Assembly: GCA_963662405.2 (NCBI GenBank)
Contig: CAXXKT010000001.1
Location: 128,001-192,000 of the forward strand
DNA: 64,000 nt
DNA from: Syntrophales bacterium
Lineage (GTDB): Bacteria; Desulfobacterota; Syntrophia; Syntrophales; UBA2210
Direction: 5' to 3'
A program made the position numbers and the translations under genes. Under the pieces are notes generated by a model. The model was not told where the DNA came from. It saw only the letters and a list, made by a program, of their open reading frames with translations, and did not search any database. Every line of letters begins with the position of its first letter. Within the stretch, counting starts at the first letter, position 1. Shown here piece after piece: positions 48-37,620 of this stretch.

Positions 48-517
48 ACCCTCATTGTTGCCTTATCTTATTACAAATTCATAAATACTGAGAAGCAGTA
101 ATTTAGGCTAAAAACTCAAACTGGGCTAATAAGCTAATATAACTATAGATATTTTTTTAATTTGTTGATAATCTTCCAAAGAATTCAGGGGAGTTCAAAG
201 AAGAGAATCTCCCCCGGTTTATTGCTGTTTCCGATAATATTATATATATCAAGCACGTGGAGTCTATCCCCCATAATAAGTATTCTTGCATGTCTCCGCC
301 CCCTTCGCGTCCCTGTAGGTAGGTGGGGGAAGACCGGGCAGGGTCCCCGGTTTTTCGGTAGCGAACCTATCCCCCTAAATTGTGCCTTTTCCTGTGCCCG
401 TGAGGTCAAATTTTGCTGAATTTTACCGCATATTCCCCAACGTGAACAACAAAATAAACACCTAATCTTTCAAATAGTTGCCTTTTCCCTTGCGTTTTCC
501 AACTTTCTTTTTTCGAA

Positions 518-562
518 CTCCGGAGCCAAAGGCCCTGGGTTCGAGTCCCAGATCGCCTACCA
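518..562 (+). other. 3' half of tRNA-Arg(CCG); probable att site of a tRNA-integrated element
   Basis: CT-CCG-GA anticodon loop, GCCAA stem strand, T-arm CTGGG-TTCGAGT-CCCAG, acceptor strand and ACCA; no 5' half upstream. Confidence 0.8.
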
Positions 563-606: not shown

Positions 607-963
607 AACCATCTTTCATTTTACCCCACACCCTACCCCACACGGGAAGATGAATTTGGTCCTTTTCAGGCAATATGGGCGAAATATTTGTTGGGGTGGA
701 TGTTGATATATACTTGAAGGAATATCGTTGTTTCTTCCTCCTACCATGAATTTATATAGAGTGGTGTATAATCGATTAGTCGATGTTCATGGGAAGGCGG
801 GAGGACTCAGTGCTTCCTGGGCGTTAGAGCCCTCATTTCAGTATGTCCCAAGCCTCTGTGAACCATAATAGGTTGGTTGGATCATTGAATCCTTGTCACG
901 CTGGAGGATTGGTCTGGAGGCTATGGTTCCTGCTTTTCCTTTCATTCGTTAGGAGGTGAAGCG

Positions 964-2166
964 ATGTCAGGATTAACGGACAGCTTTAATGATTTTGTTG
1001 GAATAGATGTTTCCAAAGATAAATTCGACGCCTGCGGAATCACAAGAGATGCAGCACAGCTCTTCCAGTTTTCCGCGAGCATGGATCGTAAGGGCTTCGA
1101 TAAGTTGAGGGAACATCTTGCTTCTGTTTCCATTTCGTCCGTTTTAATCGGGATGGAATCAACAGCATCTTATCATATCAATCTTTTCTCGTACTTGATT
1201 TCAGAGGGTTACCGAGTGATCATCATTAATCCTCTGCTGATTTCCAATTACGTGAAGATGCAGCTCCGGAAAACCAAGACAGATAAGAAGGATGCCGCTG
1301 TTATTGCCATGTTTCTTCTTGCACACAGAAATACCCTGAGCCAACGATCATATTCTCCTTTGATTTCCGAGCTTCGGGATCTTTCACGTCAGCGGGAGAA
1401 TCTGGTTGATGAGATGACCGCTCTGAAGATCAACATCAAACGGCTCCTGAATATCACTTTTCCGGAATTGGAGCATATGACGTTGGTCTTTACGAAGTCT
1501 ATGCTGAAGCTTCTCCAGCAATACCCATCTGCTGTTGCTCTGAGAAGTGCGGATCCTATTCAATTGTCCCAGACGCTCATTGCAGATTCCTATGGGCACA
1601 AAAGAGAAGCATTTACCGCGGAGTTAATGAAGGCAGCTAGAGCGTCGGTCGGTACCCACAGTGCTGCGAAGGAAGTCATTCTTAAACAACAGGTGACCTT
1701 GCTCCTTCACTTTGAAGAGGACCTGCAAGAGATAACCGGCATATTAATTGAGATGAGCCGAAATCTGATGGAAGAAGACATAAACATTCTGACTTCCATA
1801 AAGGGCATTGGTAACAAAACTGCTGTTAATTTTCTCATTGAGATGGGGGGCGACATCAATCAGTATGATGATTCCGGGAAGATCATTGCCATGGCGGGCT
1901 TAGATCCGGCTGTTTACCAGTCAGGCAAACATGAAGGTAAAGGCAAGATCACGAAACGAGGGAACCGCCATTTACGGAGAGTCATCTGGATGATGGCAAC
2001 CAGGGTGATCAACTATAGCGATGTTTTCAAGACTTACTACCTCAAACGTAGAAAGGAGGGATTGCCGTATAAGATGGCAGTATTGGCCACCGCTCACAAA
2101 TTGATCCGTGTCATCTATGCCATGCTGACGCAACGGACAACTTTCTGCCCACAGATAAATTCATGA
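964..2166 (+). CDS. IS110-family transposase (recombinase)
   Basis: VGIDVSK, GMESTA, KTDKKDA DEDD domain; AGLDP..YQSG...KRGN..LR C-terminal domain; ~200-bp noncoding leader. Element ends not resolved. Confidence 0.95.
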   Translation: MSGLTDSFNDFVGIDVSKDKFDACGITRDAAQLFQFSASMDRKGFDKLREHLASVSISSVLIGMESTASYHINLFSYLISEGYRVIIINPLLISNYVKMQLRKTKTDKKDAAVIAMFLLAHRNTLSQRSYSPLISELRDLSRQRENLVDEMTALKINIKRLLNITFPELEHMTLVFTKSMLKLLQQYPSAVALRSADPIQLSQTLIADSYGHKREAFTAELMKAARASVGTHSAAKEVILKQQVTLLLHFEEDLQEITGILIEMSRNLMEEDINILTSIKGIGNKTAVNFLIEMGGDINQYDDSGKIIAMAGLDPAVYQSGKHEGKGKITKRGNRHLRRVIWMMATRVINYSDVFKTYYLKRRKEGLPYKMAVLATAHKLIRVIYAMLTQRTTFCPQINS

Positions 2167-2227
2167 TAGTTGACTGAAAGAGATGGGATCAAGAGTGAAG
2201 AAAAAGTGGAGGATTTCTTTCCGTATT

Positions 2228-2283
2228 CATTAACACAGAGTTCACCGGGGCGCTTACGCATCCGGTGAAACAACTTGTTCAGC
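2228..2283 (-). other. attC site, array 1
   Basis: Minus strand GCTGAAC...GTTTCACCGGATGCG-TAAG-CGCCCCGGTGAAC-tctgt-GTTAATG; imperfect palindrome with extra bases overlapping the gene stop. Confidence 0.8.
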
Positions 2284-3244: not shown

Positions 3245-3281
3245 GCCGAACAATGTTTATATGGATCCTGATAAAAACCTA
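3245..3281 (-). other. attI-like site, array 1
   Basis: TAGGTTTTTATCAGGATCCATATAAACATT-GTTCGGC; 32/33 identical to 30267-30299. Confidence 0.7.
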
Positions 3282-3359
3282 TTTTCCTTCCTGCTATACG
3301 TACCAAAGTGGTGATTGCAACTGAGGTAATTTAGGTTCATCATCTGTCTGTATTTCTTA

Positions 3360-4532
3360 TTGATTCAGGATAAGGAGGCAGAGATGACCATGAAAGACGA
3401 TACTACACGGAAGGCAGCAATGTCTTCTGCAGTTACAGAACATCCCACCGCAACGACATCCTGGCATTACCAGACTCGTTTCCGTTTTTCATTACATCGT
3501 GATGGAAGTGTTGAGACACTCGCTACGATTTTGCAGCATCTTTCCCACATGGATCTTCCGGGCACGGATCATGTTGCGGCCTATCTGCGTTACCTGACCT
3601 ATCGTAACCGGCGCCCCCGGACGTTGACAAGTCGTTTTGGTTCCATAGTTTTGTTCCTCGCCATGGTGCGTGACAGCGGGAAGACACGTATTGAAGACGT
3701 TACCAGGAGAGATATTGAGTGCTTTATCGAGCACGAGCAGGACAGGGGCAATAAGATTACGACGATACGGACAAAGCTCGTCAATGTGCAAGCCTTTCTG
3801 CGCTATCTCGTGGAGGAGGAGATTGTTTCCCCGGATGTGTTTGGCAGGAGGATACGGTTGCAGCTGCCGGAGCGGCTGCCGAGGGCTATGGATCCTGACG
3901 ATCTACAGAAGCTGTTATCCGTGATTGACGATACCCGGGACCGAGCCATGATCATGGTACTGTTGAGGACGGGGATGCGCATCGGCGAGTTGCTCAATAC
4001 GAAGGTATCAGATGTCCACATCGGGGAACGGAGGATAGAGATTTACGAAGGCGAGAAGAACCGCCTGGGGCGCGTGGTGTATCTCAGTGACGATGCGATC
4101 CGTGCGCTCCGGAGGTGGTTGCAGGAGAGGAATCCCTGGGAGGCGTACCTTTTTTCCACTCATAGAAGCATATACCAGATGTCGTACAGCACCGCCCGTC
4201 TGATCTTCCATCGATATCTTGAGAAGGCGGGGTTACGTGACCGGGGCTATACGCTCCATACGCTTCGGCACACCTTTGCAACGGAGTTTCTCAACGCTGG
4301 CATGCGCCTGGAGTGTCTCCAGGTGCTGCTGGGTCACCGGAGTATCGAGGAGACCAGGCGCTATGCCAGGCTTACCGACAAGACCCGCGAGGAAGAGTAC
4401 TTTCGGGCCATGGCCCGGATAGAAGGGAGGGATAGTGATGGACATAACCAATGTCATCGTGAACTGGCGGCGGTTTCTGAAACGGAGAAACTGTTCGCCC
4501 AATACCGTGAAGAACTATCTGAATCTCATTAA
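3360..4532 (+). CDS. Tyrosine recombinase A with N-terminal SAM-like domain
   Basis: TGMRIGE, HTLRH, LLGH, TRRY motifs; start uncertain. Confidence 0.92.
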   Translation: MIQDKEAEMTMKDDTTRKAAMSSAVTEHPTATTSWHYQTRFRFSLHRDGSVETLATILQHLSHMDLPGTDHVAAYLRYLTYRNRRPRTLTSRFGSIVLFLAMVRDSGKTRIEDVTRRDIECFIEHEQDRGNKITTIRTKLVNVQAFLRYLVEEEIVSPDVFGRRIRLQLPERLPRAMDPDDLQKLLSVIDDTRDRAMIMVLLRTGMRIGELLNTKVSDVHIGERRIEIYEGEKNRLGRVVYLSDDAIRALRRWLQERNPWEAYLFSTHRSIYQMSYSTARLIFHRYLEKAGLRDRGYTLHTLRHTFATEFLNAGMRLECLQVLLGHRSIEETRRYARLTDKTREEEYFRAMARIEGRDSDGHNQCHRELAAVSETEKLFAQYREELSESH

Positions 4533-5331
4533 ACACTTTGTTGTCTGGGCGGACGTGCCCGTTGAGGAGGTGACGCATGCAACGGTATCGCGCTACATAG
4601 AGTATCTGATGCAGAAGCGGCTATCGCCCAAGACCGTCAACTGTCATCTGAACGGTATTCGTCAGTTCTATCACTATCTGCGGGAAGAGGAAGGGATCGG
4701 TATTGTCAATCCCATCAGGAACAAACATACACAGAAGATGCCCCGACCCCTTCCCCGGCATTTACGAGACGAGCAGGTGGATCGTTTCTTTAACGTTGTG
4801 AATGGACACCGTGACCGTGCCATGTTCATGCTCATGCTCCGTTGCGGTCTCAGGGTGGAAGAGGTTGCCACCCTTGCCATCGGTGCCATAGACATCAAAC
4901 GCAGGGCTATCTTGATTGAGGACGGCAAGGGTGCAAAGGACCGGGTCGTGTATATGAGTAATGATGTGATTCAGTCACTGGCAGCCTATCTGAGAGTACG
5001 GCCGGCATCCCGGGCACGGAAGATCTTTCTGGCAGAGAAAGAGCCGTGCAGGGGCCAGCCCATCTCCATCCGCGGCATTCAACGGCGCATGGAACACTAT
5101 GCCCGCAAAGCGCGGATCAAAATGTCCTGTCATCATCTCCGGCATACGATGGCTACGCAGATGCTCAATGCCGATGCTGATCTGTGTACGATTCAGGATC
5201 TTCTCGGCCACAGCAATATAAAAACCACCCAGAGGTATTGCCGTGTATCGAACATGAAGGTTCAGAGAGATTACTTCAATGCCATGGAGGTCATTATGCA
5301 CCGAAGGGCCTGCAACCCACATAACACTTGA
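4438..5331 (+). CDS. Tyrosine recombinase B (XerC/D-like)
   Basis: CGLRVEE, GKGAKDR, HHLRH, LLGH, TQRY; GGAGG RBS; overlaps recombinase A. Confidence 0.92.
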   Translation: MDITNVIVNWRRFLKRRNCSPNTVKNYLNLIKHFVVWADVPVEEVTHATVSRYIEYLMQKRLSPKTVNCHLNGIRQFYHYLREEEGIGIVNPIRNKHTQKMPRPLPRHLRDEQVDRFFNVVNGHRDRAMFMLMLRCGLRVEEVATLAIGAIDIKRRAILIEDGKGAKDRVVYMSNDVIQSLAAYLRVRPASRARKIFLAEKEPCRGQPISIRGIQRRMEHYARKARIKMSCHHLRHTMATQMLNADADLCTIQDLLGHSNIKTTQRYCRVSNMKVQRDYFNAMEVIMHRRACNPHNT

Positions 5332-5509
5332 CGGAACAGAGAATATGTGAAATGGTAAACAACAACTAACCGCATAGAATCAATAGGTAAATCAGACTAT
5401 AGTACGTATAGCTTCCTGTAGTTGAGAAAAACAAGGGTGAAGAAGAAGTAGAATATTTCTTCCTGCAATCATTAGGAAAATAGTCGCTGTTGTCACTATT
5501 TTTCAAGAC

Positions 5510-9478: not shown

Positions 9479-10018
9479 AGAAACACCAGTTTTTGTAATG
9501 CGGGGTTTGTGTATTATTGTAGGGTCATCTTTACCGCTTAATTAGAACCTCCTAAGCTATGATGATACATTAAGAAAGATATGATAGGGTTATCGGTGAA
9601 GTAACTCCATAGAGGATGTTTGTCAAGTATTATTAATAATATTGTATATTTCAATCTGTAATCTTTGAATTCCTAATGATAGGTTCTTGAGTATTTGTGA
9701 ATGCAATAACAAAAAACACTCATCTCCATATGAGCGTCACAAGCTATTCAAAGTCCATCCTCGGCGCTTTATATTGATTTGGTGACAGGTAATATGTTAT
9801 GTGCGGACGCGCCAATGGGGAAGTGTAAATCGGTCAGACTATCTTAACAAGCTGCGAGATAGTTTCTAACCTGTATCAACCAGCGACCCCAATATATTGT
9901 ACCCATGTTTGCAGCACCCGCAAAAATCCGATATCATCGATTCTCTTGTGTAAAACAGCTGCTTACCAAAAACATAATTAGGCAATAACGTGATAATAAG
10001 TCACAATTAAGAAAACGT

Positions 10019-10954: not shown

Positions 10955-11296
10955 TGGGGTCAACCCTAGACTATTTACTAAGAAAGGATCTGATTCTCTT
11001 TAGGATAATGGCGACAGCGACTATTTTTAGCCAATACCGTGACTTGTTTTAAATAAGAATTATTCCCCCCGGAATGTAAGAAACAATACATCTAAAAAAT
11101 ATTATGTCAAGGAGTTTCAAGGATATTGTATATTTCAATCCGTAACAAACACTACTCACGCTCTACAAACAACCAAACAGCATTTCACATTTTGCGGCCA
11201 AGCTCTCATTGACATACGAGTCCATTTTACCTATATCGTTTCCATGAAAAGCAAGTTCTTATCAATCAATAAATAATACATAAGGATGGGAGTGGC

Positions 11297-11917: not shown

Positions 11918-12354
11918 AACGATCAACGGGGCAAATCAAATATTTCGAGACGAAATATCCAATAAATCAATCAAGCTTGTTTCCATCGAGTACAGAAAGG
12001 CACGCGCGTTTCCCTTAAGAGGAAAAAGACACGGTTCATTTCTGCACCTTTCATCCCGTATTCAATGAGTTGATGAGGAAATCCGACATGCACCTTTGCA
12101 GGTGGAATATGCAAAATTGGCCATTGGATAAGCAAAAACCCGTCGCGCCTTCTCTCATGGGATCCCATCATATATTGTTCTTTAACCTTAGATGGATGCG
12201 CGGCCAGTGTGAAGGGAACCGAGAAGATGTCTGGAGAATACCTCTCCGGGCTGAGGGAATGGACAGATTTTCAAGCGCAATACTGCAGTATCATTTCCAC
12301 CGAAATCGGTCCTGGACCGTAACGTAAGAACCGAAAGAGTGCCCTCTCATACCC

Positions 12355-22741: not shown

Positions 22742-25700
22742 ATGGATGTTACGAGAAGAGGTTTTCTAACTATTTCCGGCGCGGTCGGATCGGGCATCGC
22801 CTTGTCCTCTCTGGGCATCAATCTGAAACCAACGAAGGCGTATGCAAGCGAACTCAACAAGATGAACCGGCTCAGGGCAGCCAAGCAGGTCACGACGGTA
22901 TGCTGCTACTGCGCCGTGGGGTGCGGCCTCATCTGCAGTGTCGACAAGGTTACCGGCAAGATATTCAATATCGAGGGCGACGCCGATCATCCCATTAATG
23001 AAGGGTCACTGTGCGCGAAGGGGGCCGGATTCTTCGACCTGACGGAGGCCAACAAGTACCGTCTCCGGAAAGTTCTCTACCGTGCGCCGAAGAGCGACCG
23101 GTGGGAAGAAAAGGACTGGGACTGGGCCCTTGCCCGTATCGCCCGCCTGGTCAAAGACACCAGAGAAAAGGATTTCATCACCACCAACAGCAAAGGCCAG
23201 ATCGTCAACCGGACCGAATCGATCGGACATCTGGGAAGTTCCAACGTCGACAGCGAGGAGTGCTGGCTGATGAGCGTGATCTCACGCGCCATGGGGCTTG
23301 TCTATGTTGATCACCAGGCCCGGGTCTGACACAGCCCGACTGTAGCGGCTCTGGCAGAGTCGTTCGGACGCGGTTCCATGACAAACCACTGGATAGATCT
23401 CCAGCACAGCGATTGTATACTGATTATGGGCAGCAATGCGGCGGAACATCACCCCATTGCCTTCAAATGGATGCTCCGGGGAAAAGAAAAGAACGGAACG
23501 AGACTCATCCATGTCGATCCCCGCTTCACCAGGACATCGGCCCGTTGCGATTATCACGTTCCCCTGCGTTCCGGAACCGATATCGCCTTCCTGGGCGGGA
23601 TGATCAACTACATTCTCAACTCCGATAAATATTTCAAAGATTACGTCGTCAACTACACCAACGCCCCCTTTATCGTGGCGGAGGGTTTCGGCTTCAACGA
23701 CGGTCTCTTTACGGGGTACGACAAAGACAAGAAAAAATACAACAAGGAGACATGGGTGTTTGAAAAGGACTTTGCGGGAAATCCCAAGAAAGATCCTTCC
23801 CTCAATCATCCGCGCTGTGTCTTCCAGCTCCTGAAAAAACACTACACCCGCTACACCCTGGAGAAGGTCTCCAGCACCACCGGCGTTTCCAAGGAAGACC
23901 TGATGAAGGTCTACACGGACTACGGGAGCACCGGCGTGGGCACCCGCGCGGGGACGATCTGTTACGCCCTGGGCTGGACGCACCATTCGACGGGTACGCA
24001 GAATATCCGCACCATGGCCATGATTCAGCTCCTGCTCGGCAATATCGGGATCAACGGCGGCGGCGTCAACGCCCTTCGAGGCGAACCCAATGTCCAGGGA
24101 TCGACCGATCACTGTATCCTGTACGGCAATCTGCCGGGCTACCTGAAGATGCCCAAGGCGTCTCAAGACACGCTCGATAAATATCTCAAAAAGTACACCC
24201 CGGTGACAAACGATTCCCAGTCGCCGAACTACTACCGGAACTATCCGAAGTTCTACGTGAGTTTCCTCAAGTCGCTCTTCGACGACAAGGGGACACCGGA
24301 AAACGAATTCGGCTATTCCTGGATGCCCAAACTGGATGACGACGTACCGTACTCCCTCATGCACCTCTTCGACACGATGTACAAGGGCACGGTGAAGGGG
24401 CTGTTTTCCGTAGGTACCGATCCGGCCGTCAGCTCGCCCAACGCGAACAAGGTGAGAAAGGCGCTGAAAAAACTGGACTGGCTGGTAAGCGCCAACATCT
24501 TCGACAACGAGACCTGTTCCTTCTGGAAGGGCCCCGGTGTCGATCCATCGAAGATCAAAACGGAGTGTTTCCTCCTCCCCGCCTCGGCCTCCATGGAAAA
24601 GGAAGGCAGCCAGACCAACAGCGGCAGATGGGTGCAGTGGAAATACAAAGCGGCCGAAGCCCCCGGCGATGCGATTCCCGTGGGAGAAATATTCATAAAG
24701 ATCATGCAGTCCGTTCAATCTCTCTACGCCAAGGAAGGCGGCATCAATCCCGAACCGATCCTGAATTTCAAATGCGATTACCATGACCGGAGCGGCAACT
24801 TCGTTGCCCTGGGAGCGGCCAAGCAGATCAACGGTTACTTCCTTAAGGACACGGTCATCAAGGGCAAAACCTTCAAGAAGGGACAACTGGTTCCGACCTT
24901 CGGCATGCTCCAGGACGACGGTTCCACCTCCAGCGGCAACTGGCTCATGGCGGGAAGCTTCACCGCCGACGGCGAAAACAATATGACCAAACGCGGGAAG
25001 GACGATCCGACAGGTCTCGGCCTCTACCCCAACTGGACGTGGGCCTGGCCCGTCAACAGGCGCATCCTGTACAACCGCGCCTCCTGCGATATTAACGGAA
25101 AACCGTACAACCCGAAGAGAAAGCTCCTCGAGTGGACCGGTGAAAAATGGGTGGGCGACGTCCCCGACGGCGGCTGGGCGCCCATGGCCGATCGCGAGAA
25201 TGGGAAGTACCCCTTCATCATGAAACCCGACGGCGTGGGATCGCTCTTCGGTCCCGGTATGGCGGAAGGACCGTTCTCCGAGCATTACGAGCCCTATGAG
25301 ACGCCTCTGAAGAAAAATCCCCTTTCCAGCCAGTTGAACAATCCGGCGCTCCACGTGTTCACGACCGACATGGATCAGTTGGCCAACGGAGACGGGAAGT
25401 TCCCTTATGTCTGTACCACCTATTCCTGCACCGAGCACTGGTGTTCCGGTGCGCTGACGCGATGGCAGGCGTGGCTCCTGGAGATGCAGCCGGAGGCATA
25501 CGTCGAAATCGGCGAAAAGCTTGCGCAGGAAAAGGGCATCAAGAACGGCGAAAAAGTAAAGGTGTCCTCGGCCCGGGGATTTGTGAAATGCGTGGCCATG
25601 GTTACCAAGCGATTCCGCCCCTTCCTCGTTGAAGGCAAGACGGTGCATCAGGTCGGTCTGCCCTTCAATTATGGGTGGTTGTTCCCCGAAGATGGCGGGG

Positions 25701-26608: not shown

Positions 26609-27280
26609 ATGATACCACAGAAGGGAATGATTAAAGTATCGGACGCGTTTGAGAGAATCGTTCATTGGTGCCTGGCCATCTCCTGCCTTATCCTGATGAT
26701 CTCGGGACTGGGGATGATGTTTCATGCCTTCAACTTCCTGGCGATTCCGGTGGGCGGGCTCAAGAGCCTGAAACTTATCCACAACTTTACCGGGTTGATA
26801 TTTGTACCGTCGCTCTTCTTCGCTATCCTGATCTGGTGGAAGGAAGCGGGCGTATTCGACTTTCCCGACGATCTGGAATGGATCAAATGCGCGGGCGGGT
26901 ACCTCTGGCACGTGGACAATCCACCGGAGACGGGGAAATACAACCCCGGCCAGAAGGCCTTCTTCCTTGCCGTGGCTATCTTCGGCATCATTATGATCAT
27001 CAGCGGGCTCATCATGTGGTTCTCCCTGAGTTTCCCCGCCGGGACGGTACAGATAGCGTATTTGCTCCACGCGCTGGGGTTCCTGGTGATCTTCCCCTTC
27101 TTCTTTATCCACCTCTACCTGGGAACCATCGGTGTCCCCGGTTCGTTCCCCGCCGTGGCGACCGGTTACGTGACCCGGTCCTGGTGTGAGAAACAATGCC
27201 CCAAGTGGCTCAGAGAAAAGGAAGAAGAAGGAACACTTGAGATCTACGGTGAAGAAAAGGCGGCGGCTGAACATCACTAA
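26609..27280 (+). CDS. fdnI: Formate dehydrogenase gamma (cytochrome b) subunit
   Basis: ERIVHW, GKYNPGQK, IHLYLG. Confidence 0.92.
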   Translation: MIPQKGMIKVSDAFERIVHWCLAISCLILMISGLGMMFHAFNFLAIPVGGLKSLKLIHNFTGLIFVPSLFFAILIWWKEAGVFDFPDDLEWIKCAGGYLWHVDNPPETGKYNPGQKAFFLAVAIFGIIMIISGLIMWFSLSFPAGTVQIAYLLHALGFLVIFPFFFIHLYLGTIGVPGSFPAVATGYVTRSWCEKQCPKWLREKEEEGTLEIYGEEKAAAEHH

Positions 27281-27304
27281 GCGCCCTCTTTCCATTTGAA
27301 AAGG

Positions 27305-27336
27305 AAAGGACCCGTACTTTGTACGGGTCCTTTTTT
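27305..27336 (+). terminator. Intrinsic terminator of the fdn operon
   Basis: AAAGGACCCGTAC-ttt-GTACGGGTCCTTTTTT. Confidence 0.9.
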
Positions 27337-27350
27337 ATTGTTCATCCGGC

Positions 27351-27444
27351 TAATGAGTACGAATGAAGGCTGTCTTTGTTTGCTTCCTGTAGTCGATAAA
27401 AACCAGAGTGAAGAAATAGTAGTGGTTTCTTTCAGTACTCATTA
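27351..27444. repeat. 94-bp unit with 10-bp terminal inverted repeats, containing the conserved array-distal segment
   Basis: TAATGAGTAC...GTACTCATTA; right part similar to 5412-5474 and 2190-2232. Confidence 0.6.
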
Positions 27445-27501
27445 CGGACTGCTGTGGGGCGCGCGGTCGTTTTGCGCGCCCCTACCAGCAGATAGTTAGC
27501 A
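27439..27501 (-). other. attC site, array 2, third cassette
   Basis: TGCTAAC...GCTGGTAGGGGCGCGC-loop-GCGCGCCCCACAGC-agtcc-GTAATGA (GTA instead of GTT). Confidence 0.8.
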
Positions 27502-27508
27502 TAGCTTT

Positions 27509-28243
27509 TTATGTTTTCGCCATCGCTTTTGAAAGATTACCTGATTTTTTCCACCCATAAAAAGTTTTTTCAAAAAATTCTTTAGACGCTGTATTTTCAA
27601 TCAGGACAGGTAATATACCATTATAATTTAGGAAAAGCTTTTCATTGTATGGTAGCTGTCCAGTATGGTTTGAAATAAAAAACACCCATGTTAAACCCGC
27701 CAACACAAACATATAACATCGATGTCCATCAAATCTTGTTTCTTTAGCGAGCATCATCATTTTGCTGGTAAAATCGAAATAGGACGGGGTAAAGATTATG
27801 AGGCATCCATAGTCATAAGATGCACCTGGATTACCCTCGTATAACATAGAACGTAATTTTTCTTCATGAGGTCCTAAGCTAACGTTTGTAAATTGATGAA
27901 GATTTGATGCTCCTGCTCGCCATATAAGCGAAAGCTGAAATAGTTTAAACTTTGTATAATCAATATTTTTTATTATGATAAAATCACTCATTTTCTCCAT
28001 ACTTAGCTTATTACCACTAAAAAACACTTGAGCAGCATATGTTTCCCATTTATTCAGTCTGTCTTCGCATTCTCGGCAAAGCATCTTTTCCCTAAAGCCC
28101 TTTTGCCATTTTCTTACTTTTGGTGCACCTTCTATTTGAACGAATTGATGCTTTTCCTTGGCATAAAGAGCTTTGAAAAGAAATTCTGGGACTATATGCG
28201 AATTACATAGTTCTTTTTCTTTAAGGCACAATCTACATTTCAT
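27509..28243 (-). CDS. Cassette protein, HNH-endonuclease-like
   Basis: CRLC....L..SHIVP...LCRECE N-terminal motif. Confidence 0.65.
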   Translation of the reverse strand: MKCRLCLKEKELCNSHIVPEFLFKALYAKEKHQFVQIEGAPKVRKWQKGFREKMLCRECEDRLNKWETYAAQVFFSGNKLSMEKMSDFIIIKNIDYTKFKLFQLSLIWRAGASNLHQFTNVSLGPHEEKLRSMLYEGNPGASYDYGCLIIFTPSYFDFTSKMMMLAKETRFDGHRCYMFVLAGLTWVFFISNHTGQLPYNEKLFLNYNGILPVLIENTASKEFFEKTFYGWKKSGNLSKAMAKT

Positions 28244-28253
28244 AGTGAATTGA

Positions 28254-28315
28254 TGCTAACGGGCTGCTCAGGGGCGCGCGGCTTTTGCGCGTTTACTGCA
28301 GCAGCAATGTTATAG
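28254..28315 (-). other. attC site, array 2, second cassette
   Basis: CTATAAC...GCTGCAGTAAACGCGC-loop-GCGCGCCCCTGAGC-agccc-GTTAGCA; CTATAAC is complementary to the GTTATAG that opens the cassette. Confidence 0.9.
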
Positions 28316-28333
28316 CAACGTCTTATGATTCAA

Positions 28334-28936
28334 TTATAGAGGGTCTTCATTAGATAAACGTATTTCAAAAGTGTTACCTAAATACATAATATTTAGACAG
28401 TTTCCATGGCCTAAAAATACTCTTTCCATACCTTCTTTAGCTGGTTGAAGTCGGTATTCGACCTGAGTAACCTTTGCTGCAACCGCAATTTTAACACCGA
28501 AAAATGTATCTGGATCGTTTTTTATTGCTTTGATAATTGAATAAACCTTTTGCTTGGGGCAAAGAAGTTCCAGCTTAAGCTCTGGCGAATGCCTTGAGGC
28601 CCTTATCAATAGCTGGTAGTTGATATCATCACATGTAGCCACATTCTCCAAGGTTCCGATAAACAGAATGGGTTTGCCAATTAACCATACTGCCTCTAAA
28701 TCAATCGAGTAGAGACATCGGGAATGCTTTTTAATAATGGATTCTCTCCAGCTAGTATCAGCTCCCGAATCCCTAGCAAAAGCTTGGACTGCCAAGCGTA
28801 GGGCCTCTTCTTGAGCTTTTTCTTTAGCGCCAGAATCTGCGATATCTTTCTGACGATCTGAGCATGATAGCATACACAAGCTAAGAATGGCCGCAGTTAC
28901 AATAATGAGCCTCTTAAATCGATGTATATGTGTCAT
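28334..28936 (-). CDS. Cassette-encoded putative lipoprotein
   Basis: Start after GTTATAG-AGGTAGG; signal peptide ending LCMLSC. Confidence 0.7.
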   Translation of the reverse strand: MTHIHRFKRLIIVTAAILSLCMLSCSDRQKDIADSGAKEKAQEEALRLAVQAFARDSGADTSWRESIIKKHSRCLYSIDLEAVWLIGKPILFIGTLENVATCDDINYQLLIRASRHSPELKLELLCPKQKVYSIIKAIKNDPDTFFGVKIAVAAKVTQVEYRLQPAKEGMERVFLGHGNCLNIMYLGNTFEIRLSNEDPL

Positions 28937-28950
28937 GGGTTTTCCTACCT

Positions 28951-29024
28951 CTATAACGTTGTCTTCACCGGTGGCGACGAAGTGAAGTGGAATTGTCCCA
29001 TCCGAGTGCAAGGCATGGTTGGCA
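28951..29024 (-). other. attC site, array 2, first cassette
   Basis: TGCCAAC-catgc-CTTGCACTCGGATGG...CCACCGGTGAAG-acaac-GTTATAG with extrahelical bases. Confidence 0.9.
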
Positions 29025-29027
29025 TTT

Positions 29028-30248
29028 TCATCCAAATGAAAAAGACGTATTCTTGCTAAATACTTTTATCTCACCATCGGCGGAGATTTTCACAGAAAGC
29101 CCATAATCTTTCAGTGTGTTCGCTGCTGCAAGTCGCGCACCTCCGTCTGACCCTGCTTCCAGCTTAAGTATCGCTCCTGCAGAAATAAACTTTCCTGTAG
29201 CATCAAGAACCACCGCACCGTCAATACCGAGAATTTCTTGCCTCAATCTTCTATCTGTATTTTGAAAGGTAGCATTATTTATAGCCGCTAATAATACCTT
29301 GGTTTTGATAGATCGATTATTTTCGAAATGATCTGATTCATTAACCCTTTGATCATCATGAAATTTTTTAGATTTCGCCTTTTGAAGTATCCCGATGCAA
29401 GCACCAGTACGTGCAAATGAAACGTCAATGATTGACTCATAAAGGCTTTCCCTCAGATTTCTATCAAGTTTCCTGCTTTTAAACGCTAATTGTCTTAATA
29501 CTGAATTGTAAGCGAATAGCCTCCATTCCCCTCTTCTTTTAGCAAATATGAGGGTCCCAGAGTTGAAAACTAATATTTCGCCATTTCTATTTAATATAAG
29601 GGCGATCTTGTTGTTTCCCTCAGTATATTTTGCAAAGGTGGTGTAGCGGAAAGGTGAGTTGTGAGTTTCTGGTGCGAGGTTAAGTGTTTGGTATCCAATA
29701 AGATTATTTCCGATGGAAAATTCCACCAATGTATCGTACCCATTTGTCAATACCTTCGAAAAATCATTCTTTGTATATTCTTCAAAAGTTGTACCATTTG
29801 ACGAAATAACATTCATATCAATGCCAATAGATACAGCTATCCTATTACCTTCATATGTCTCTCCTGACCAACGTTCCAATTTTTCAATAAATCTGGCTAT
29901 CTCCAGAATTTTATTAGAATCGTCATCCTCAACCAAAGATTTTGCTATAACCCTACTAACAGTGTTCGATATCAGATACTTTTGAATTTGTTCATCAAGT
30001 GTTGCATAATCATTAGCTATATTAAATACATCTCTGATAATTTTTGTTTCATTAGATTCAAAAGGTTGGGCTCTATAAACAATATACCGTCCTCCTTCTT
30101 CACAAAGAATCCCAATTTTAGAGCCTCCGCTTAGGTGTGATACATCTTTCTTCTGATTTCCTGAATCTTGTTCAAAAGATATATCAATACCAGAGAAAAA
30201 TTTAACAATTTGGTTAGAGAGTATAAAGTCAACTAAATCTTTTTTCAC
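29028..30248 (-). CDS. Cassette protein with C-terminal DisA_N/diadenylate-cyclase-like domain
   Basis: TGACIG, IDGAVVLD..G, GGARLAAA, VKISADG. Confidence 0.75.
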   Translation of the reverse strand: MKKDLVDFILSNQIVKFFSGIDISFEQDSGNQKKDVSHLSGGSKIGILCEEGGRYIVYRAQPFESNETKIIRDVFNIANDYATLDEQIQKYLISNTVSRVIAKSLVEDDDSNKILEIARFIEKLERWSGETYEGNRIAVSIGIDMNVISSNGTTFEEYTKNDFSKVLTNGYDTLVEFSIGNNLIGYQTLNLAPETHNSPFRYTTFAKYTEGNNKIALILNRNGEILVFNSGTLIFAKRRGEWRLFAYNSVLRQLAFKSRKLDRNLRESLYESIIDVSFARTGACIGILQKAKSKKFHDDQRVNESDHFENNRSIKTKVLLAAINNATFQNTDRRLRQEILGIDGAVVLDATGKFISAGAILKLEAGSDGGARLAAANTLKDYGLSVKISADGEIKVFSKNTSFSFG

Positions 30249-30262
30249 ATCTGCTCCTTATA

Positions 30263-30299
30263 TACCAACAATGTTTATCTGGATCCTGATAAAAACCTA
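30263..30299 (-). other. attI-like site, array 2
   Basis: TAGGTTTTTATCAGGATCCAGATAAACATT-GTTGGTA; GTTGGTA pairs with TGCCAAC of the first attC. Confidence 0.7.
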
Positions 30300-30561
30300 A
30301 ACACGGCAGTTTTGCTGTATGAAGCCTCTCACGAAAAACAAAAAGCCCCACCTCTCTTTGATGAGAAACAGGGCTTTGATAATCAGACCATAATCCACTC
30401 CTTGGTTACAGCCAGTCACAAGCAGAAAAAATCAAGATCAAGATTTCATCTAGCTAACTCTATGATGATGTATTGTCAAGAGATTTTACCATGAGACCTT
30501 CAATCAGTATTCATCGATTTTCTTCTGGAATTATTTTGAGCAGTAGTAGATACCGTTCTTG

Positions 30562-31530
30562 TCAAGCGAAAGCTGGTTTATAATTTGGGTCATACTTTTT
30601 GCCGGATTTCAGGATTCCAAAGATAATGTGCACCAGCTTCCTCATTATCGCACAGACAATCACTTTCCCGTTTTTTCCTTTCTCTTTAAGGCGATTATAA
30701 AAAGCAATCATAACGGGATTACATTGGATCGATACCAGTGCCGGCATATACAGAGCTTTTCTGAGCCGCGCATGTCCGATTTTGCATAACCTGGGTTTGC
30801 CTTTAATAGATGATCCTGAAAGTGTTTCCCGTGGCGCAAGCCCGATGAACGCCACCAGTTCCCGCACATGACTGAATTTGTCCAGATCATCCAATTCTGC
30901 CAGGATGTGAGGAATGGTTGCCGTGCCGATACCTGGAATGGAAGCCAAGAGCCCTTTCTTGTTTTTCAGGTTCGGATCCCGATCAATTAGATCAGCAATC
31001 TGTTCCCTGATTTTCTCTATTTCCTTATCAAGATAGTTAATGTGTTCTCTGATCAATGGAATAACTGATTCATGAGCTGCACTTATTCGATTCTTCTCCT
31101 GACTTCGCATGTTGATCAGACTGTCAACTCGCCTGACCAACGCCCTCAGGGCTCTGATCTCCGGTGAGGGTGGACTCCAGGGATCTGGTCTCATAGCCAG
31201 ACAGAATCTGGCAATCAAGGCTGCATCAACCTTATCCGTCTTGGTGCGAATCAACTCGCTCTGGCCAAACCCTTTGATGCGAGCGGGATTGACAACACTG
31301 ACCACATGGCCGGTTTCATGGAGATAGATCGCCAATTCCTCTCCATAGTTGCCGGTCGCCTCAAGGCAGGCATGTACCTTATGAACTCCCTGTCTCTCCA
31401 GCCAGATCGTCAGTGTCTCAAAACCTTCCACCGTATTTTTGCAGGTTTTGTGTTTTGTCTTCCCCTCTACAAGAAGTGCAACGTCGAATTTCTGTTTTGC
31501 GATATCTATCCCAAGAACCGATACTGACAT
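30562..31530 (-). CDS. IS110 transposase (IS621-like size)
   Basis: LGIDIAK, LEATG, KTDKVDA, GLAP...SGSS. Confidence 0.96.
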   Translation of the reverse strand: MSVSVLGIDIAKQKFDVALLVEGKTKHKTCKNTVEGFETLTIWLERQGVHKVHACLEATGNYGEELAIYLHETGHVVSVVNPARIKGFGQSELIRTKTDKVDAALIARFCLAMRPDPWSPPSPEIRALRALVRRVDSLINMRSQEKNRISAAHESVIPLIREHINYLDKEIEKIREQIADLIDRDPNLKNKKGLLASIPGIGTATIPHILAELDDLDKFSHVRELVAFIGLAPRETLSGSSIKGKPRLCKIGHARLRKALYMPALVSIQCNPVMIAFYNRLKEKGKNGKVIVCAIMRKLVHIIFGILKSGKKYDPNYKPAFA

Positions 31531-31574
31531 ACTACAATACTCCCTCGTACATTAATCTAATCTCCAGTAAAATA

Positions 31575-31735
31575 GCTTCGTTCGAATCAACCTTGTAAGT
31601 GCAAACTCATTCCCATCTGAGAAGGTTTATGATACCGTACGAGTTATTGAACAAAGCTGTGGGAAGAGGATCTACTCTACAAATCATGCTCTCTGGCATC
31701 AGGTGAAACACAGATTCACTCTCCCCATTTTACCC
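31575..31735 (-). ncRNA. Putative bridge RNA of IS110 copy A; ends approximate
   Basis: Two loops with segments matching target (GTTTCACCT, GTAG) and donor junction (ACGGTATCA, ACAAG). Confidence 0.7.
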
Positions 31736-31875
31736 CAGTGTCTCAAGATCTCTTATATCTCCTAATCCCCTTCTAGAACACAAGGTGCTATACGTAACAA
31801 AATGGTGGTTGCAACTGAGCCATCATAGGTTCATCATCTATCTGTATTTCCTGTTGATTTGGTGGGAAGGAGAGA

Positions 31876-33039
31876 GTGATGAGCCAAAAAGCCACAGAAA
31901 CGTATTCTGTCTTATCTCCGTCATCCCTGACTGGTTTGAGAAACACCGATCATGGTGAGGGGATACAGCACACCGTTGTTTTCAAACCGGGCATTCCTGA
32001 AAAAACAGGGTGCATTGAGGGCCTTCGATACCAGCAACAGTCAAAAGCACTTCGATGGGCATTAGATCGTATTGCGGCCTGGAACCTGCCTGGCACGGAG
32101 CATGTTGAGGAATATTTTCGGAGCATGTATCGGCGGAACTTCAGGCCCAGAACATACGCTAGCAACTTGGCAGCGATTCATGTCTTTCTCACCGTTGTCA
32201 GGGATTCGGGAAAGGCCCATTTGGAAGAGGTTACCAAAGGTGACATTGAAGCCTTTATCGAGCATGAGCAGGATCGAGGGTTGATGTTATCAACAGTACG
32301 GACGAGGCTGCATTGCGTCAATGCCTTTTTAGGCTATGCAATAGATTCAGGTATTGTTGGCACCGATGTCCTGGCACGAAGGATCCGCCTGAAAAAGCCG
32401 GAGACATTGCCTCGAGCCATAGATCCTGATGACGTCAAGCTTCTTCTCTCCGTTATCGATCATCCCAGAGATCGAGCCATGGTCACGGTACTTCTACGGA
32501 CGGGAATGAGAATCGGCGAGTTACTCGGTACCATGGTACGGGATCTTCACATGAAAGACCGGAGGGTTGATATTTACGAAGGGGAGAAGAATCGTATCGG
32601 GAGAGTGGTCTATCTCAGCGATGATGCGGTCAGTACTTTGAAGGCATGGCTCAAGATGAGAGATGCCCATAAGGAGTTTCTCTTTTATGCCCGAGGTAAA
32701 AGTAGCATGTCTTACAGCACTGCTCGTCAGATATTTGTAGATTATCTCACGAAAGCCGGTCTTGCTTATAAGGGATACTCCCTTCATGCGCTTCGCCATA
32801 CCTTTGCCAGTGAGCTACTAAATGCCGGTATGAGGATCGAGTGTCTCCAGCCACTGATGGGGCATACATCTCTGGATGTCACCAGGCGCTATGCACGGCT
32901 TACGGACAAGACAAGAGAGGGAGAGTACTTCAGAGCCATGACAATCATAGAAAGGGGGAAAATTGATGGACATTACCGATGCGATCATCAGGTACAGGCG
33001 TTTCTTGAAGAGAAGGAACATCTCACCGAACACTATTAA
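31876..33039 (+). CDS. Tyrosine recombinase A
   Basis: TGMRIGE, HALRH, LMGH, TRRY; paralogue of 3360-4532. Confidence 0.92.
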   Translation: MMSQKATETYSVLSPSSLTGLRNTDHGEGIQHTVVFKPGIPEKTGCIEGLRYQQQSKALRWALDRIAAWNLPGTEHVEEYFRSMYRRNFRPRTYASNLAAIHVFLTVVRDSGKAHLEEVTKGDIEAFIEHEQDRGLMLSTVRTRLHCVNAFLGYAIDSGIVGTDVLARRIRLKKPETLPRAIDPDDVKLLLSVIDHPRDRAMVTVLLRTGMRIGELLGTMVRDLHMKDRRVDIYEGEKNRIGRVVYLSDDAVSTLKAWLKMRDAHKEFLFYARGKSSMSYSTARQIFVDYLTKAGLAYKGYSLHALRHTFASELLNAGMRIECLQPLMGHTSLDVTRRYARLTDKTREGEYFRAMTIIERGKIDGHYRCDHQVQAFLEEKEHLTEHY

Positions 33040-33859
33040 GAACTATTTGAATAGTCTCAAACGGTTTGTGATCTGGCTCGATGTACCGATCGAGGAGGTT
33101 ACATACCATAAGATTACAGCGTATATAGATTGCATGATCGGCCAACGGTTACGTCCGAAGACTATCAACTGTCATCTGAATACGGTTTGTCAGTTTTATC
33201 ACTACCTCATCGAAGAGGAAGGGCTCCCGATCGTGAATCCTGTCAGGAAACCAAATATCATGAAACTCCCCCGGGGACTTCCCAAACATCTCAGAGAAGA
33301 CCACATAGATATCCTCTTCAATCATCTGAAAGGATATCGGGATCGAGCCATGTTTACGCTCATGCTCCGATGTGGCCTGCGAGTGGAAGAAGTGGCTCAT
33401 CTTTCACTCGGCAACATTGATCTTAAACGCAGAATGCTCCTCATCCAGGATGGCAAGGGTGCCAAAGATCGAATTGTCTATATCAGTAACGATGCCCTTC
33501 ATGCTCTCGTGAAATATCTCTGGGTGAGGCCCGCAAACAAAGTAAGGAGGGTTTTTCTGGTAGAGAAAGGGCCATGCACGGGACGTCCTCTCTCCATTCG
33601 CGGCATTCAAAAGCGCATGGAGTATTATGCGCGTAAAACAGGACTCAAGATATCCTGTCACCATCTTCGTCATACAATGGCCACTCAGATGTTGAATGCA
33701 GATGCTGATCTGTCTACCATCCAGGATCTCTTGGGACATAACTCAATCAGGACAACACAACGATACTGCCGAATATCAAATCTCAAAGTACAGAGAGATT
33801 ACTACAAAGCCATGGAGGTGATCATGCAGAAGACGGCTGGCAACTCAAATAATCCTTGA
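32966..33859 (+). CDS. Tyrosine recombinase B
   Basis: CGLRVEE, GKGAKDR, HHLRH, LLGH, TQRY; paralogue of 4438-5331. Confidence 0.92.
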   Translation: MDITDAIIRYRRFLKRRNISPNTIKNYLNSLKRFVIWLDVPIEEVTYHKITAYIDCMIGQRLRPKTINCHLNTVCQFYHYLIEEEGLPIVNPVRKPNIMKLPRGLPKHLREDHIDILFNHLKGYRDRAMFTLMLRCGLRVEEVAHLSLGNIDLKRRMLLIQDGKGAKDRIVYISNDALHALVKYLWVRPANKVRRVFLVEKGPCTGRPLSIRGIQKRMEYYARKTGLKISCHHLRHTMATQMLNADADLSTIQDLLGHNSIRTTQRYCRISNLKVQRDYYKAMEVIMQKTAGNSNNP

Positions 33860-33950
33860 CGGGATAGAGGATTTATGAAACTTTAAACACAGCATAACAC
33901 CATAATATCAATGGTAAATATAGATTATGTTACGTATAGGTAGGTGCAAG

Positions 33951-34151
33951 ATGTGAGGTCCGGTGTAGCAGGGGCAGAGCTAGTGTTTGGTTGCGCTGTG
34001 CTTCCTGTTGTCAAGCTTCCAGTTAAGAGGGTTGTGCTTTATTACAAACGGTAATGGTTGACATACTGTAGTGCCGTTGGGAAACCAAGTGGAAAACGGA
34101 GTAAACAAGTCTAATCAACATGTAGAATCGAGAGAAAACGGTCTATTTGAC
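33951..34151 (+). mobile_element. Possible degenerate, internally deleted group II intron relic
   Basis: 5' similar to 37358 (GTGTG start); 3' GGGAAACCAAGTGG...GGTCTATTTGAC resembles an intron domain VI end. Confidence 0.4.
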
Positions 34152-36031: not shown

Positions 36032-37268
36032 AGATACCGTTCTTGTCAAGCGAAAGCTGGTTTATAATTTGGGTCATACTTTTTGCCGGATTTCAGGATT
36101 CCAAAGATAAGGTGCACCAGCTTCCTCATTATCGCACAGACAATCACTTTCCCGTTTTTTCCTTTCTCTTTAAGGCGATTATAAAAAGCAATCATAACGG
36201 GATTACATTGGATCGATACCAGTGCCGGCATATACAGAGCTTTTCTGAGCCGCGCATGTCCGATTTTGCATAACCTGGGTTTGCCTTTAATAGATGATCC
36301 TGAAAGTGTTTCCCGTGGCGCAAGCCCGATGAACGCCACCAGTTCCCGCACATGACTGAATTTGTCCAGATCATCCAATTCTGCCAGGATGTGAGGAATG
36401 GTTGCCGTGCCGATACCTGGAATGGAAGCCAAGAGCCCTTTCTTGTTTTTCAGGTTCGGATCCCGATCAATTAGATCAGCAATCTGTTCCCTGATTTTCT
36501 CTATTTCCTTATCAAGATAGTTAATGTGTTCTCTGATCAATGGAATAACTGATTCATGAGCTGCACTTATTCGATTCTTCTCCTGACTTCGCATGTTGAT
36601 CAGACTGTCAACTCGCCTGACCAACGCCCTCAGGGCTCTGATCTCCGGTGAGGGTGGACTCCAGGGATCTGGTCTCATAGCCAGACAGAATCTGGCAATC
36701 AAGGCTGCATCAATCTTATCCGTCTTGGTGCGAATCAACTCGCTCTGGCCAAACCCTTTGATGCGAGCGGGATTGACAACACTGACCACATGGCCGGTTT
36801 CATGGAGATAGATCGCCAATTCCTCTCCATAGTTGCCGGTCGCCTCAAGGCAGGCATGTACCTTATGAACTCCCTGTCTCTCCAGCCAGATCGTCAGTGT
36901 CTCAAAACCTTCCACCGTATTTTTGCAGGTTTTGTGTTTTGTCTTCCCCTCTACAAGAAGTGCAACGTCGAATTTCTGTTTTGCGATATCTATCCCAAGA
37001 ACCGATACTGACATACTACAATACTCCCTCGTACATTAATCTAATCTCCAGTAAAATAGCTTCGTTCGAATCAACCTTGCAAGTGCAAACTCATTCCCAT
37101 CTGAGAAGGTTTATGATACCGTACGAGTTATTGAACAAAGCTGTGGGAAGAGGATCTACTCTACAAATCATGCTCTCTGGCATCAGGTGAAACACAGATT
37201 CACTCTCCCCATTTTACCCCAGTGTCTCAAGATCTCTTATATCTCCTAATCCCCTTCTAGAACACAAG
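36032..37268 (-). mobile_element. IS110-family element, copy B
   Basis: Differs from copy A by a few SNPs; target GT-AG-GTG. Confidence 0.93.
36046..37014 (-). CDS. IS110 transposase
   Basis: Two amino-acid differences from copy A (KTDKI/V, VHL/I). Confidence 0.96.
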   Translation of the reverse strand: MSVSVLGIDIAKQKFDVALLVEGKTKHKTCKNTVEGFETLTIWLERQGVHKVHACLEATGNYGEELAIYLHETGHVVSVVNPARIKGFGQSELIRTKTDKIDAALIARFCLAMRPDPWSPPSPEIRALRALVRRVDSLINMRSQEKNRISAAHESVIPLIREHINYLDKEIEKIREQIADLIDRDPNLKNKKGLLASIPGIGTATIPHILAELDDLDKFSHVRELVAFIGLAPRETLSGSSIKGKPRLCKIGHARLRKALYMPALVSIQCNPVMIAFYNRLKEKGKNGKVIVCAIMRKLVHLIFGILKSGKKYDPNYKPAFA

Positions 37269-37350
37269 GTGAAACACAGATTCACTCTCCCCATTTTACC
37301 CCAGTGTCTCAAGATCTCTTATATCTCCTAATCCCCTTCTAGAACACAAG
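37187..37350. repeat. Exact 82-bp tandem duplication of the IS110 left end
   Basis: 37187-37268 equals 37269-37350. Confidence 0.95.
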
Positions 37351-37357
37351 GTGAAAA

Positions 37358-37620
37358 GTGTGAGATCCGGTATAGTAGGGGCAGATCGAGTGTTTTGCTG
37401 CACCATTCTTCCTCCTTGATACAATTCAAATTGAAGCAATTGTCAAAGATTGTTTTCAGGAAGGGTTTGCCCTGACCAAAGGAGTCCTCGGCCCAAAAGG
37501 ATGGAACCCGGAAGCCGATTAAGACGGGTAGATGGTAAATCCTGCTTGGACATTGTTATTGGTTTTGAAGACCCTCGACAGAAAGAATGCAAGCCCACCT
37601 GAAAAGGCTCAAGCTAAGAC
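37358..37620 (+). mobile_element. Possible group II intron 5' fragment; right end approximate
   Basis: GTGTG start; similar to 33951; GAACCCGGAAGCCGA...GGTAAA domain-I-like segment; no RT ORF. Confidence 0.4.

Follow-up and report, generated by a model that had tools for sequence, protein, structure and literature searches.

Cassette arrays that carry attC sites and have no integron integrase gene (intI) nearby are known as CALINs (attC clusters that lack an integron-integrase), and occur in genomes that encode IntI elsewhere (PMC4889954). The origin and spread of such arrays is an open question for which several routes have been proposed; loss, rearrangement and insertion at secondary sites are given, and no dedicated mobilizing site system is named in the part of that report drawn on here (PMC4889954). 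We describe a stretch of 64 000 nt (the window; G000:C1:128001–192000, where G000 is the source genome of 3.8 Mb, a Syntrophales bacterium, assembly GCA_963662405.2, and C1 is contig CAXXKT010000001.1) that contains two cassette arrays accompanied by copies of a noncoding segment of about 63 bp, designated S. These arrays fit the CALIN definition in part, but arrays with S keep attI and a promoter-like leader, recur in one layout and are bounded by recombinase-type sites. From sequence comparison we hold it probable that S is the cargo-side half of a tyrosine recombinase site by which mobile cargo units are delimited, the units in this case being integron platforms devoid of an integrase gene, and that a simple tyrosine recombinase, RecZ, is the enzyme. 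(S, X, Y, Z, M1–M4, 'site 2' and RecZ are labels coined in this analysis.)

Parts of this arrangement recall other described systems. In the pdif (XerC/D-dif) modules of Acinetobacter, site-flanked cargo is shuffled without an enzyme in the module (PMC9771954), and here too, by comparison of loci, cargo is flanked by recombinase sites and exchanged at them; S sites, however, have a 7-bp core, 5-bp arms, a second site at 47 bp and several alternative cores, they lack XerC/XerD boxes about a 6-bp spacer and are unlike the dif-like site at C2:85547, and their enzyme is probably not XerC/D. Integrons flanked by integron mobilization units (IMU) or by MITEs (transposable elements of the miniature inverted-repeat kind) are similar in that a defective integron is moved as a unit by an enzyme in trans, yet their ends are inverted repeats of 288–439 bp served by a transposase (PMC3575428, PMC9771954), whereas here there are 63-bp site pairs with direct 7-bp cores, and S is unfolded. 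Small elements with two tyrosine recombinase genes (twin elements), two of which lie in the window, share with Tn554, SE, GInt and RIT elements a small size, more than one tyrosine recombinase, a target preference and a short flanking core (PMC10214605, PMC3414803, PMC8138268, PMC5737581). They differ from Tn554 and SE, where one long and one ordinary recombinase are joined by TnpC/Srap, in having two simple recombinases (380 and 298 aa) and no TnpC/Srap, in a two-site target and in flanks of 7 bp, identical in 46 of 57 end pairs (a set that includes the two window elements and one mis-paired row), as against a 6-bp footprint, and from RIT in having two, not three, adjacent recombinase genes.

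GMT islands are also cargo islands that enter repeat-containing sites via a circle in a spacer-dependent manner, but they need three proteins, GmtZ, GmtY and GmtX (bioRxiv 10.1101/2023.03.28.534373), in which the twin-element and RecZ systems differ; against the GmtY model (NF040693) the twin recombinases scored about 22 bits, the cut-off being 340, and RecZ gave no match, GmtZ and GmtX not having been searched for. Like attG (bioRxiv 10.1101/2022.09.11.507474), the inner end of S offers G|TT and hence possible cassette entry outside attI, although the IntI1 hot-spot motif CRGM at +6 to +9 is absent from the S consensus and most S arrays lead to attI or to a module termed X. Searches of open-licence literature gave no description of a layout with paired core and second sites, subscription papers and supplements lying outside the scope of the search.

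Results

Two-site layout of S

S consists of a 7-bp core, CTTCCTG, and a second, palindromic site 47 bp inward, with the integron crossover just past the second site; the layout can be written nYTn-CTTCCTG-WARTC, about 30 variable bases, GAYTW-C(N6)-WAATC. The sharp boundary of S is the outer CTTCCTG, the DNA before it being unrelated among copies, and the length is almost constant. The spacer of about 30 bases varies by lineage, S being one such lineage in G000, and many site pairs carry spacers unrelated to S and no integron parts. Of the 968 CTTCCTG in G000, 18 were followed by a second site at +33 to +37, compared with 2 for a control offset; where the short arms were present the figures were 12 of 54 and 0. 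The inner site is a 17-bp palindrome, with a like site about 60 bp upstream of the promoter-like module X; its centre is sometimes CAAATAC or CAGGAAG, which are cores of other twin-element variants. The conserved distal part of S is exactly the second site found at twin-element targets. Z, at the opposite end of the unit, is laid out in the same way around a different core, GTAGGTG, and faces inward. At one locus of a relative (L052, G016:C57) a 40-bp spacer joins CTTCCTG to CAAATAC, with an S-like start and an end like the right end of a twin element.

Copies of S and the two arrays

A preliminary description of this DNA had reported repeats at 5412–5474 and 27383–27444 and the right part of a third at about 2190–2232. 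They are copies A, B and C, with pairwise identities of 49/63 (A–B), 45/63 (A–C) and 48/63 (B–C), that is 71–78 %, and a blastn E value of 7e-8 for A against B in the 3.8-Mb genome; copy C proved to be whole, split by an element of the IS110 family (740–2175) into 734–739, the first 6 bp, and a remainder from 2176. The features of array 1 and its surroundings are:

734–739, plus strand: first 6 bp of the core of S copy C, left of the IS110 insertion
740–2175, plus strand: IS110-family element at the CT of the copy C core; 400-aa transposase at 964–2166 (PF01548/PF02371; NF033542 over cut-off), ends defined by comparing two copies
2176–2234, plus strand: remainder of S copy C; second site GATTT-CTTTCCG-TATTC at 2212–2228, integron crossover 2233/2234
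2228–2283, minus strand: attC adjoining copy C at the end of array 1, heuristic score 14.3
3249–3281, minus strand: attI-like site of array 1, crossover 3250/3251; 5 bp to the next core, X-Z-Y missing
3287–3293, plus strand: CTTCCTG core that closes the array-1 unit on the right and is also the left duplication of element 1
3294–5411, plus strand: element 1, twin tyrosine recombinases of 380 and 298 aa, inverted ends; inserted in the core of copy A
5412–5474, plus strand: S copy A; core CTTCCTG at 5412–5418, second site TATTT-CTTCCTG-CAATC at 5454–5470

Both arrays lie between direct CTTCCTG repeats. Array 1 is bracketed, as had been proposed, by direct copies, with cores at 734 and 3287, and has lost X-Z-Y; a unit built like it, with 47 bp from attI to the next core, occurs in the related genome G016. 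The preliminary description was also right that removal of element 1 leaves copy A 5 bp from the attI-like site, the 7-bp CTTCCTG being duplicated on either side of the element. An int-alpA RNA above its gathering score (311–377, minus strand) and, by eye, a tRNA 3' fragment (about 500–562, plus strand) place array 1 at the edge of an integrated island, and several further S copies adjoin island ends.

Array 2 is bounded by the CTTCCTG cores at 27383 and 34001. The flank to its right carries a separate second site at 34040, where three extra bases at 34026 in the contigs of two other runs give the usual spacing. The features of array 2 are:

27383–27445, plus strand: S copy B, left end of the array-2 unit; core at 27383–27389, second site GGTTT-CTTTCAG-TACTC at 27424–27440, crossover 27444/27445
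27439–27501, minus strand: last attC of array 2, score 14.8
27509–30248, minus strand: three cassette open reading frames (ORFs) with no Pfam/NCBIfam match; more attC near 28255–28315 and 28955–29022
30267–30306, minus strand: attI-like site of array 2, with the motif found beside the intI genes
30337–30498, minus strand: module X, promoter-like TTGACA-17-TAGAGT, short leader ATG-GTC-TGA and terminator-like hairpin, pointing to attI
30496–30550, minus strand: module Z, a second site pair; inner site 30497–30513, core GTAG|GTG split by an IS110
30551–31784, minus strand: IS110-family element (322 aa) in the GTAGGTG core; 5 of 5 genome copies follow a Z-type GTAG
31788–33939, plus strand: element 2, the second twin recombinase element, at a GTAGGTG core
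33940–34007, plus strand: linker Y, which leads from a GTAGGTG core to a CTTCCTG core and closes the array-2 unit on the right
34008–34056, plus strand: right flank of array 2, second site TATTA-CAAACGG-TAATG at 34040–34056; predicted target half

In the related genome G007 a locus orthologous to copy B shows homology that ends at CTTCCTG and is followed by different cargo, then by attI and X.

A profile of S iterated on the G000 contigs gave at least 22 copies at E<0.05, and a model designated R1 gave 24 matches. With a model built from 25 copies (20 from G000 and 5 from relatives, which therefore match by construction), S was present in 25 of 38 genomes of the family and 16 of 151 of the order. 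The segment is noncoding, as originally proposed. We rejected a small-protein role (no codon-phase signal, the best frame open in 11 of 25 copies, no third-position relaxation), an RNA role (RNAalifold gave 0 pairs and no consensus fold on 25 copies, and Rfam no match at S, X, Y or Z within window positions 1–40000) and an SOS box (no LexA, TIGR00498, over cut-off in the genome; the top motif matches fall at S and Z modules). A promoter scan listed none in copy B and gave 10 matches for 27250–30650, where 10.8 were expected.

Integron context

The window contains no intI; the genome has one intact (C1:2211990) and one broken (C1:30608), about 97 kb or more away. Both carry downstream an attI-like motif of the same family as window positions 3249–3281 and 30267–30306, so that the earlier attI call holds; there the site stands beside a cognate intI, with cassettes starting at G|TT. 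Both integrons (C1:2211990–2214400 and C1:30429–31553) belong to the inverted type, in which attI lies on the downstream side of the integrase gene; one intI is broken near codon 145.

By a heuristic score, used throughout for attC without a covariance model (a first genome-wide version was too noisy for a census), array 2 has three attC-like sites and array 1 one clear attC. On the cassette strand the inner end of S is G|TT-like in 16 of 21 intact copies. S is abundant, yet tied to integron parts: the strict attC score was reached at its inner end in 7 of these 21 copies and at 6 of 264 control GTTs in G000, and in relatives at 5 of 23 and 5 of 350, respectively. The first attI or X encountered beyond S shares its strand in 15 of the 22 copies and is on the opposite strand in one; for the remaining six there is none within 8 kb. 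It follows that arrays run from attI to S; the order of S, attI, X, Z and Y is constant.

It had also been claimed that the segment terminates both arrays and that two copies begin (TAATGA on the minus strand) at the crossover of the last attC of each array. Copies B and C do abut an attC, but copy A is followed instead by a hairpin resembling repetitive extragenic palindromes (REP); the junction at 2232–2234 reads G|TTAATGA, whereas that at 27444–27445 reads G|TAATGA, one T short, as at C2:286931. Arrays with different last attC sites (window 27444 and G000:C2:286993) both meet S at G|TAATGA and not at G|TT. The REP-like hairpin occupies 5476–5504, directly after copy A, with another at 11014–11029, and related hairpins follow S in several relatives (L049, L062, L063 and L065).

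The promoter of module X was read by eye and is unlisted by the promoter scan; a terminator scan did give a match. X has 57 copies in the iterated G000 set, with a ribosome-site-like run, the three-codon ORF ATG-GTC-TGA and the terminator hairpin, and the leaders of both intI genes share this plan, with ATG-x-stop ahead of a terminator. X may be an attenuator.

Exchange of partners at the cores

The att sites of tyrosine recombinases have an overlap of 6–8 bp that must match between partners, and on comparative grounds S-type sites behave in the same manner: flanks change partner exactly at the core, and switches occur only between identical cores. Among the 31 CTTCCTG-type pairs of G000, a near-identical 45-bp left flank (seven copies) meets seven different right flanks and five Y-type left flanks meet four right flanks, while one S lineage of six copies meets five left flanks; the 14 CACCTAC pairs of that genome swap partners likewise, while no CAAATAC pairs passed the filter used.

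Whole units are found opened at different cores. A 152-bp unit is CTTCCTG-flanked at C2:332197 and CAAATAC-flanked at C1:316590, with 148 of 152 positions identical after rotation. Array 2, with the order CTTCCTG S..attI X Z Y CTTCCTG, is a permutation of C1:247179–245666, which reads GTAGGTG Y S..attI X Z GTAGGTG. A 148-bp unit stands between GTAGGTG repeats at C1:1947170 and is absent from the same Z–Y junction at C1:2644521 and 2673088. The succession of S, cargo, X and a GTAGGTG pair recurs in three relatives (G003, G016 and G020). At G000:C1:1944–1956 kb and C2:394–408 kb repeated ends of an HD-GYP-like gene, identified by eye, are joined to chains of cores, suggesting that non-integron cargo moves in the same way.

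RecZ

RecZ is a simple tyrosine recombinase of 279 aa (G000:C2:404829–405665; L187:530–1366) with catalytic R, K, H, R, H and Y read from its sequence; it is below every NCBIfam cut-off, about 26 % identical to the twin proteins, and in the ESM Atlas falls only in generic integrase clusters. Its gene lies between GTAGGTG and CCTCCTG with an S-like flank, in the position of linker Y. RecZ is present in 6 of 38 family genomes, with homologues in 22 of 401 genomes of the phylum. Among 35 loci examined, 15 (10 genomes, four families) encode homologues of at least 58 % identity, and in 13 of them a CTTCCTG-type pair follows the stop codon by 105–123 bp; of the two others, one has inserted cargo and one a second site under threshold. 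A GTAGGTG-type pair lies upstream in 8 of the 15. The more distant homologues have each type in 1 of 20 loci.

In the three recZ copies of G479 the gene side is kept and the outer flanks change at cores. Judged by eye, linker M3 is similar over its left part to what lies upstream of the gene in three relatives, and the linkers may be recZ deletions. A 13-bp inverted repeat stands on either side of recZ, about 35 bp ahead of the start codon and 30 bp beyond the stop codon; close homologues retain a repeat of this type with changed letters.

Twin elements and IS110 elements at the same sites

The twin elements, of which one scan for the second recombinase of element 1 retained 77 loci, are 2.04–2.41 kb long with two genes, the two in the window having no third ORF, and the catalytic R, K and HxLRH motifs are present in all four proteins of the window elements. 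Every variant uses a core of its own. In the targets a second site, GAYTW-N7-WARTC, begins at a distance of 35–36 bp from the core, and the side on which it lies is fixed. With an ungapped S profile these flanks scored weakly, and the signal emerged once the second site was scored alone. In other genomes (the counts omit the window's own elements and two mis-called ends, GGATGAG and CGCCGCA), elements with core CTTCCTG had it on the right in 12 of 13 cases and on the left in 0 of 14; for CAAATAC the counts were right 3/4 and left 0/4, for CACCTAC right 3/4 and left 0/3, for GTAG(G/A)TG left 5/5 and right 1/4, and for CGGGATG 0/2 at threshold. Hosts are mostly deltaproteobacteria, with Nitrospira and others, and a variant core recurs at several loci per genome.

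In the IS1111-attC group an IS110-family element is inserted within attC. Both IS110s of the window lie instead in cores; the second genomic copy of that at 740–2175 (C1:879589) has the same CTTCCT|GAAAG flanks, so that the core was targeted in 2 of 2 copies.

Discussion

The two-site layout, the core-exact changes of partner, the direct-repeat boundaries, the permuted units, the linkage of recZ and the targeting by twin elements and IS110s are observed, and form the basis on which we regard S as the probable cargo-side half of a tyrosine recombinase site. Our working model is that a unit together with a linker (Y, M2–M3 or a recZ-bearing linker) would leave as a circle and integrate again wherever a site has an identical core, which is why the same parts would be seen opened at different cores; double exchange at two cores may also occur. 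RecZ, sited between two cores, would act in trans as the probable enzyme, with strand exchange within the 7-bp core, as would be expected of tyrosine recombinases in general, and the second site presumably serving for accessory binding. IntI encoded elsewhere in the genome would load cassettes at attI in trans, the array stopping at the G|TT just inside S, and the twin elements and the two IS110s would use the unit sites as landing pads. A bolder version, which we put forward tentatively, is that this may be a natural cassette-exchange system, in which RecZ lies between two non-identical sites, cargo has matching two-part ends, several mutually exclusive 7-bp cores permit units to be excised, permuted or exchanged among loci, and the whole is nested with bare integron platforms (promoter, attI and array), a widespread twin element and two RNA-guided IS110s having evolved to land there.

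The preliminary description had offered three guesses at the nature of the segment. Taken as the other half of an empty platform, S agrees in the direction of its arrays, which start at attI and end at S, but the searches set out below gave no empty attI+S junction; a noncoding module carrying attI describes the whole unit, although attI is at the far end of the cargo, outside S; and the end of a separate element targeting attC is apt in that S acts as a unit end, whereas its sharp boundary is the CTTCCTG at the opposite end and nothing shows attC targeting. The principal feature, a two-site recombinase-type sequence whose core is both the breakpoint of swaps and the landing site of element 1, had been overlooked.

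Several results weigh against our interpretation. Of the 21 intact S copies, 14 fall short of the strict attC score. The score for the second site was devised by hand once S and the twin-element flanks had been seen, so that only the contrasts of side and of position or offset are independent, and twin elements with other cores had a second site in 8 of 27 cases against 6 of 54 control windows, a weak difference. S occurs in 25 of the 38 family genomes, compared with 6 for RecZ, 9 for the twin element and 12 for IntI, and G020 (two contigs, 94 % complete) has four S matches with no RecZ, twin element or IntI at the thresholds used. (A recombinase adjoining S in G020 was rejected as the enzyme of the system; judged from its ORFs, it belongs to an IS91-like passenger.) The 13-bp inverted repeat around recZ may be the true binding site of RecZ, which could itself be a passenger using the sites. 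The permuted units could come from stepwise swaps among linear chains, and no excision joint at the cores was among the joint rows listed for the contigs of four runs, which is no evidence either way. For the empty chromosomal site of array 2, no right-flank orthologue was present in five genomes of the genus, and the orthologous core in G007 holds other cargo and is not empty. The empty attI+S junction, sought with narrow patterns that give no proof of absence, yielded one match with two mismatches and no S in the 38 family genomes, two matches, both filled, in one metagenome scan, and one chance match in one viral scan.

The want of that junction, within the limits of the patterns, bears also on the idea that S simply forms an integron platform's downstream half, which IntI (through an attI circle entering attC) and island duplication would have spread, and that the cores break often only through the insertion of mobile elements. 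The G|TT-like crossover, the strong attC excess, the single order of S, attI, X, Z and Y and the intact IntI elsewhere would all be accounted for in this way, but the many site pairs with unrelated spacers and no integron parts would not, none of the 15 intI genes examined in relatives had S within 1.5 kb, and the core-repeat-bounded units and the position of recZ between cores would go unexplained; we see only a slim chance that it is right. We find it unlikely, though less so, that the twin elements or another host recombinase perform the swaps in trans, RecZ being just another user of the sites. Both window twin elements occupy cores with 7-bp duplications, relatives of these elements pick the partner on a fixed side, their catalytic motifs are in place and G000 has two such elements to one recZ; their own inverted ends, however, are unlike S and are missing from M1 and M4, which are small units; the distances from recZ to the two cores are fixed in four families; and the site that is likely to be the host dif differs in its arms and has a 6-bp spacer.

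A regulatory role for S as operator or promoter, or an origin as a small gene now decayed, the recombinases only exploiting a sequence that is copied along with islands, would suit the 17-bp palindrome and the like site upstream of X, but is very improbable given the lack of LexA over cut-off, of a promoter match in copy B and of coding signal, and given that the palindrome centre itself serves as a crossover core (CAAATAC). Least probable of the explanations considered is that S ends a non-autonomous IS110/IS1111-type or MITE-like element targeting attC: two IS110 families do insert in cores, and attC adjoins many S copies, but both IS110s split the cores, which makes S their target and not their end, S has neither a terminal inverted repeat partner nor RNA structure, swapping extends to CAAATAC, a core that lacks a CT dinucleotide, and in about 45 S loci inspected no full-length element was seen that combined a transposase with an S end.

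If S indeed ends mobile units, attI-bearing platforms bounded by their own recombination sites would suggest a testable route by which integrase-less arrays arise, and the data yield rules for the target sites of RecZ and of the twin element, two tyrosine recombinase systems that appear to be undescribed. Their cores form natural sets that do not cross-react, which is also the design of engineered cassette exchange, and, were the exchange system real, two independent shuffling systems would be nested, the integron platform lying inside recombinase-mobilized units.

Other features of the window

Two further features related to S were noted:

11936–12064, minus strand: diverged S copy D, with an upstream linker and a CGGGATG core at 12058
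37345–37471, plus strand: Y fused to a degenerate S copy, behind the second IS110 copy

An 82-bp tandem duplication at the end of that second IS110 copy (37160–37353) ends at a GGTG core. X-end remnants with the second-site palindrome, and with neither leader nor terminator, lie at 9621–9661 and 11105–11145. At 23324–23382 a SECIS_3 match below its gathering score falls where a formate dehydrogenase ORF is split, which would fit a selenocysteine codon.
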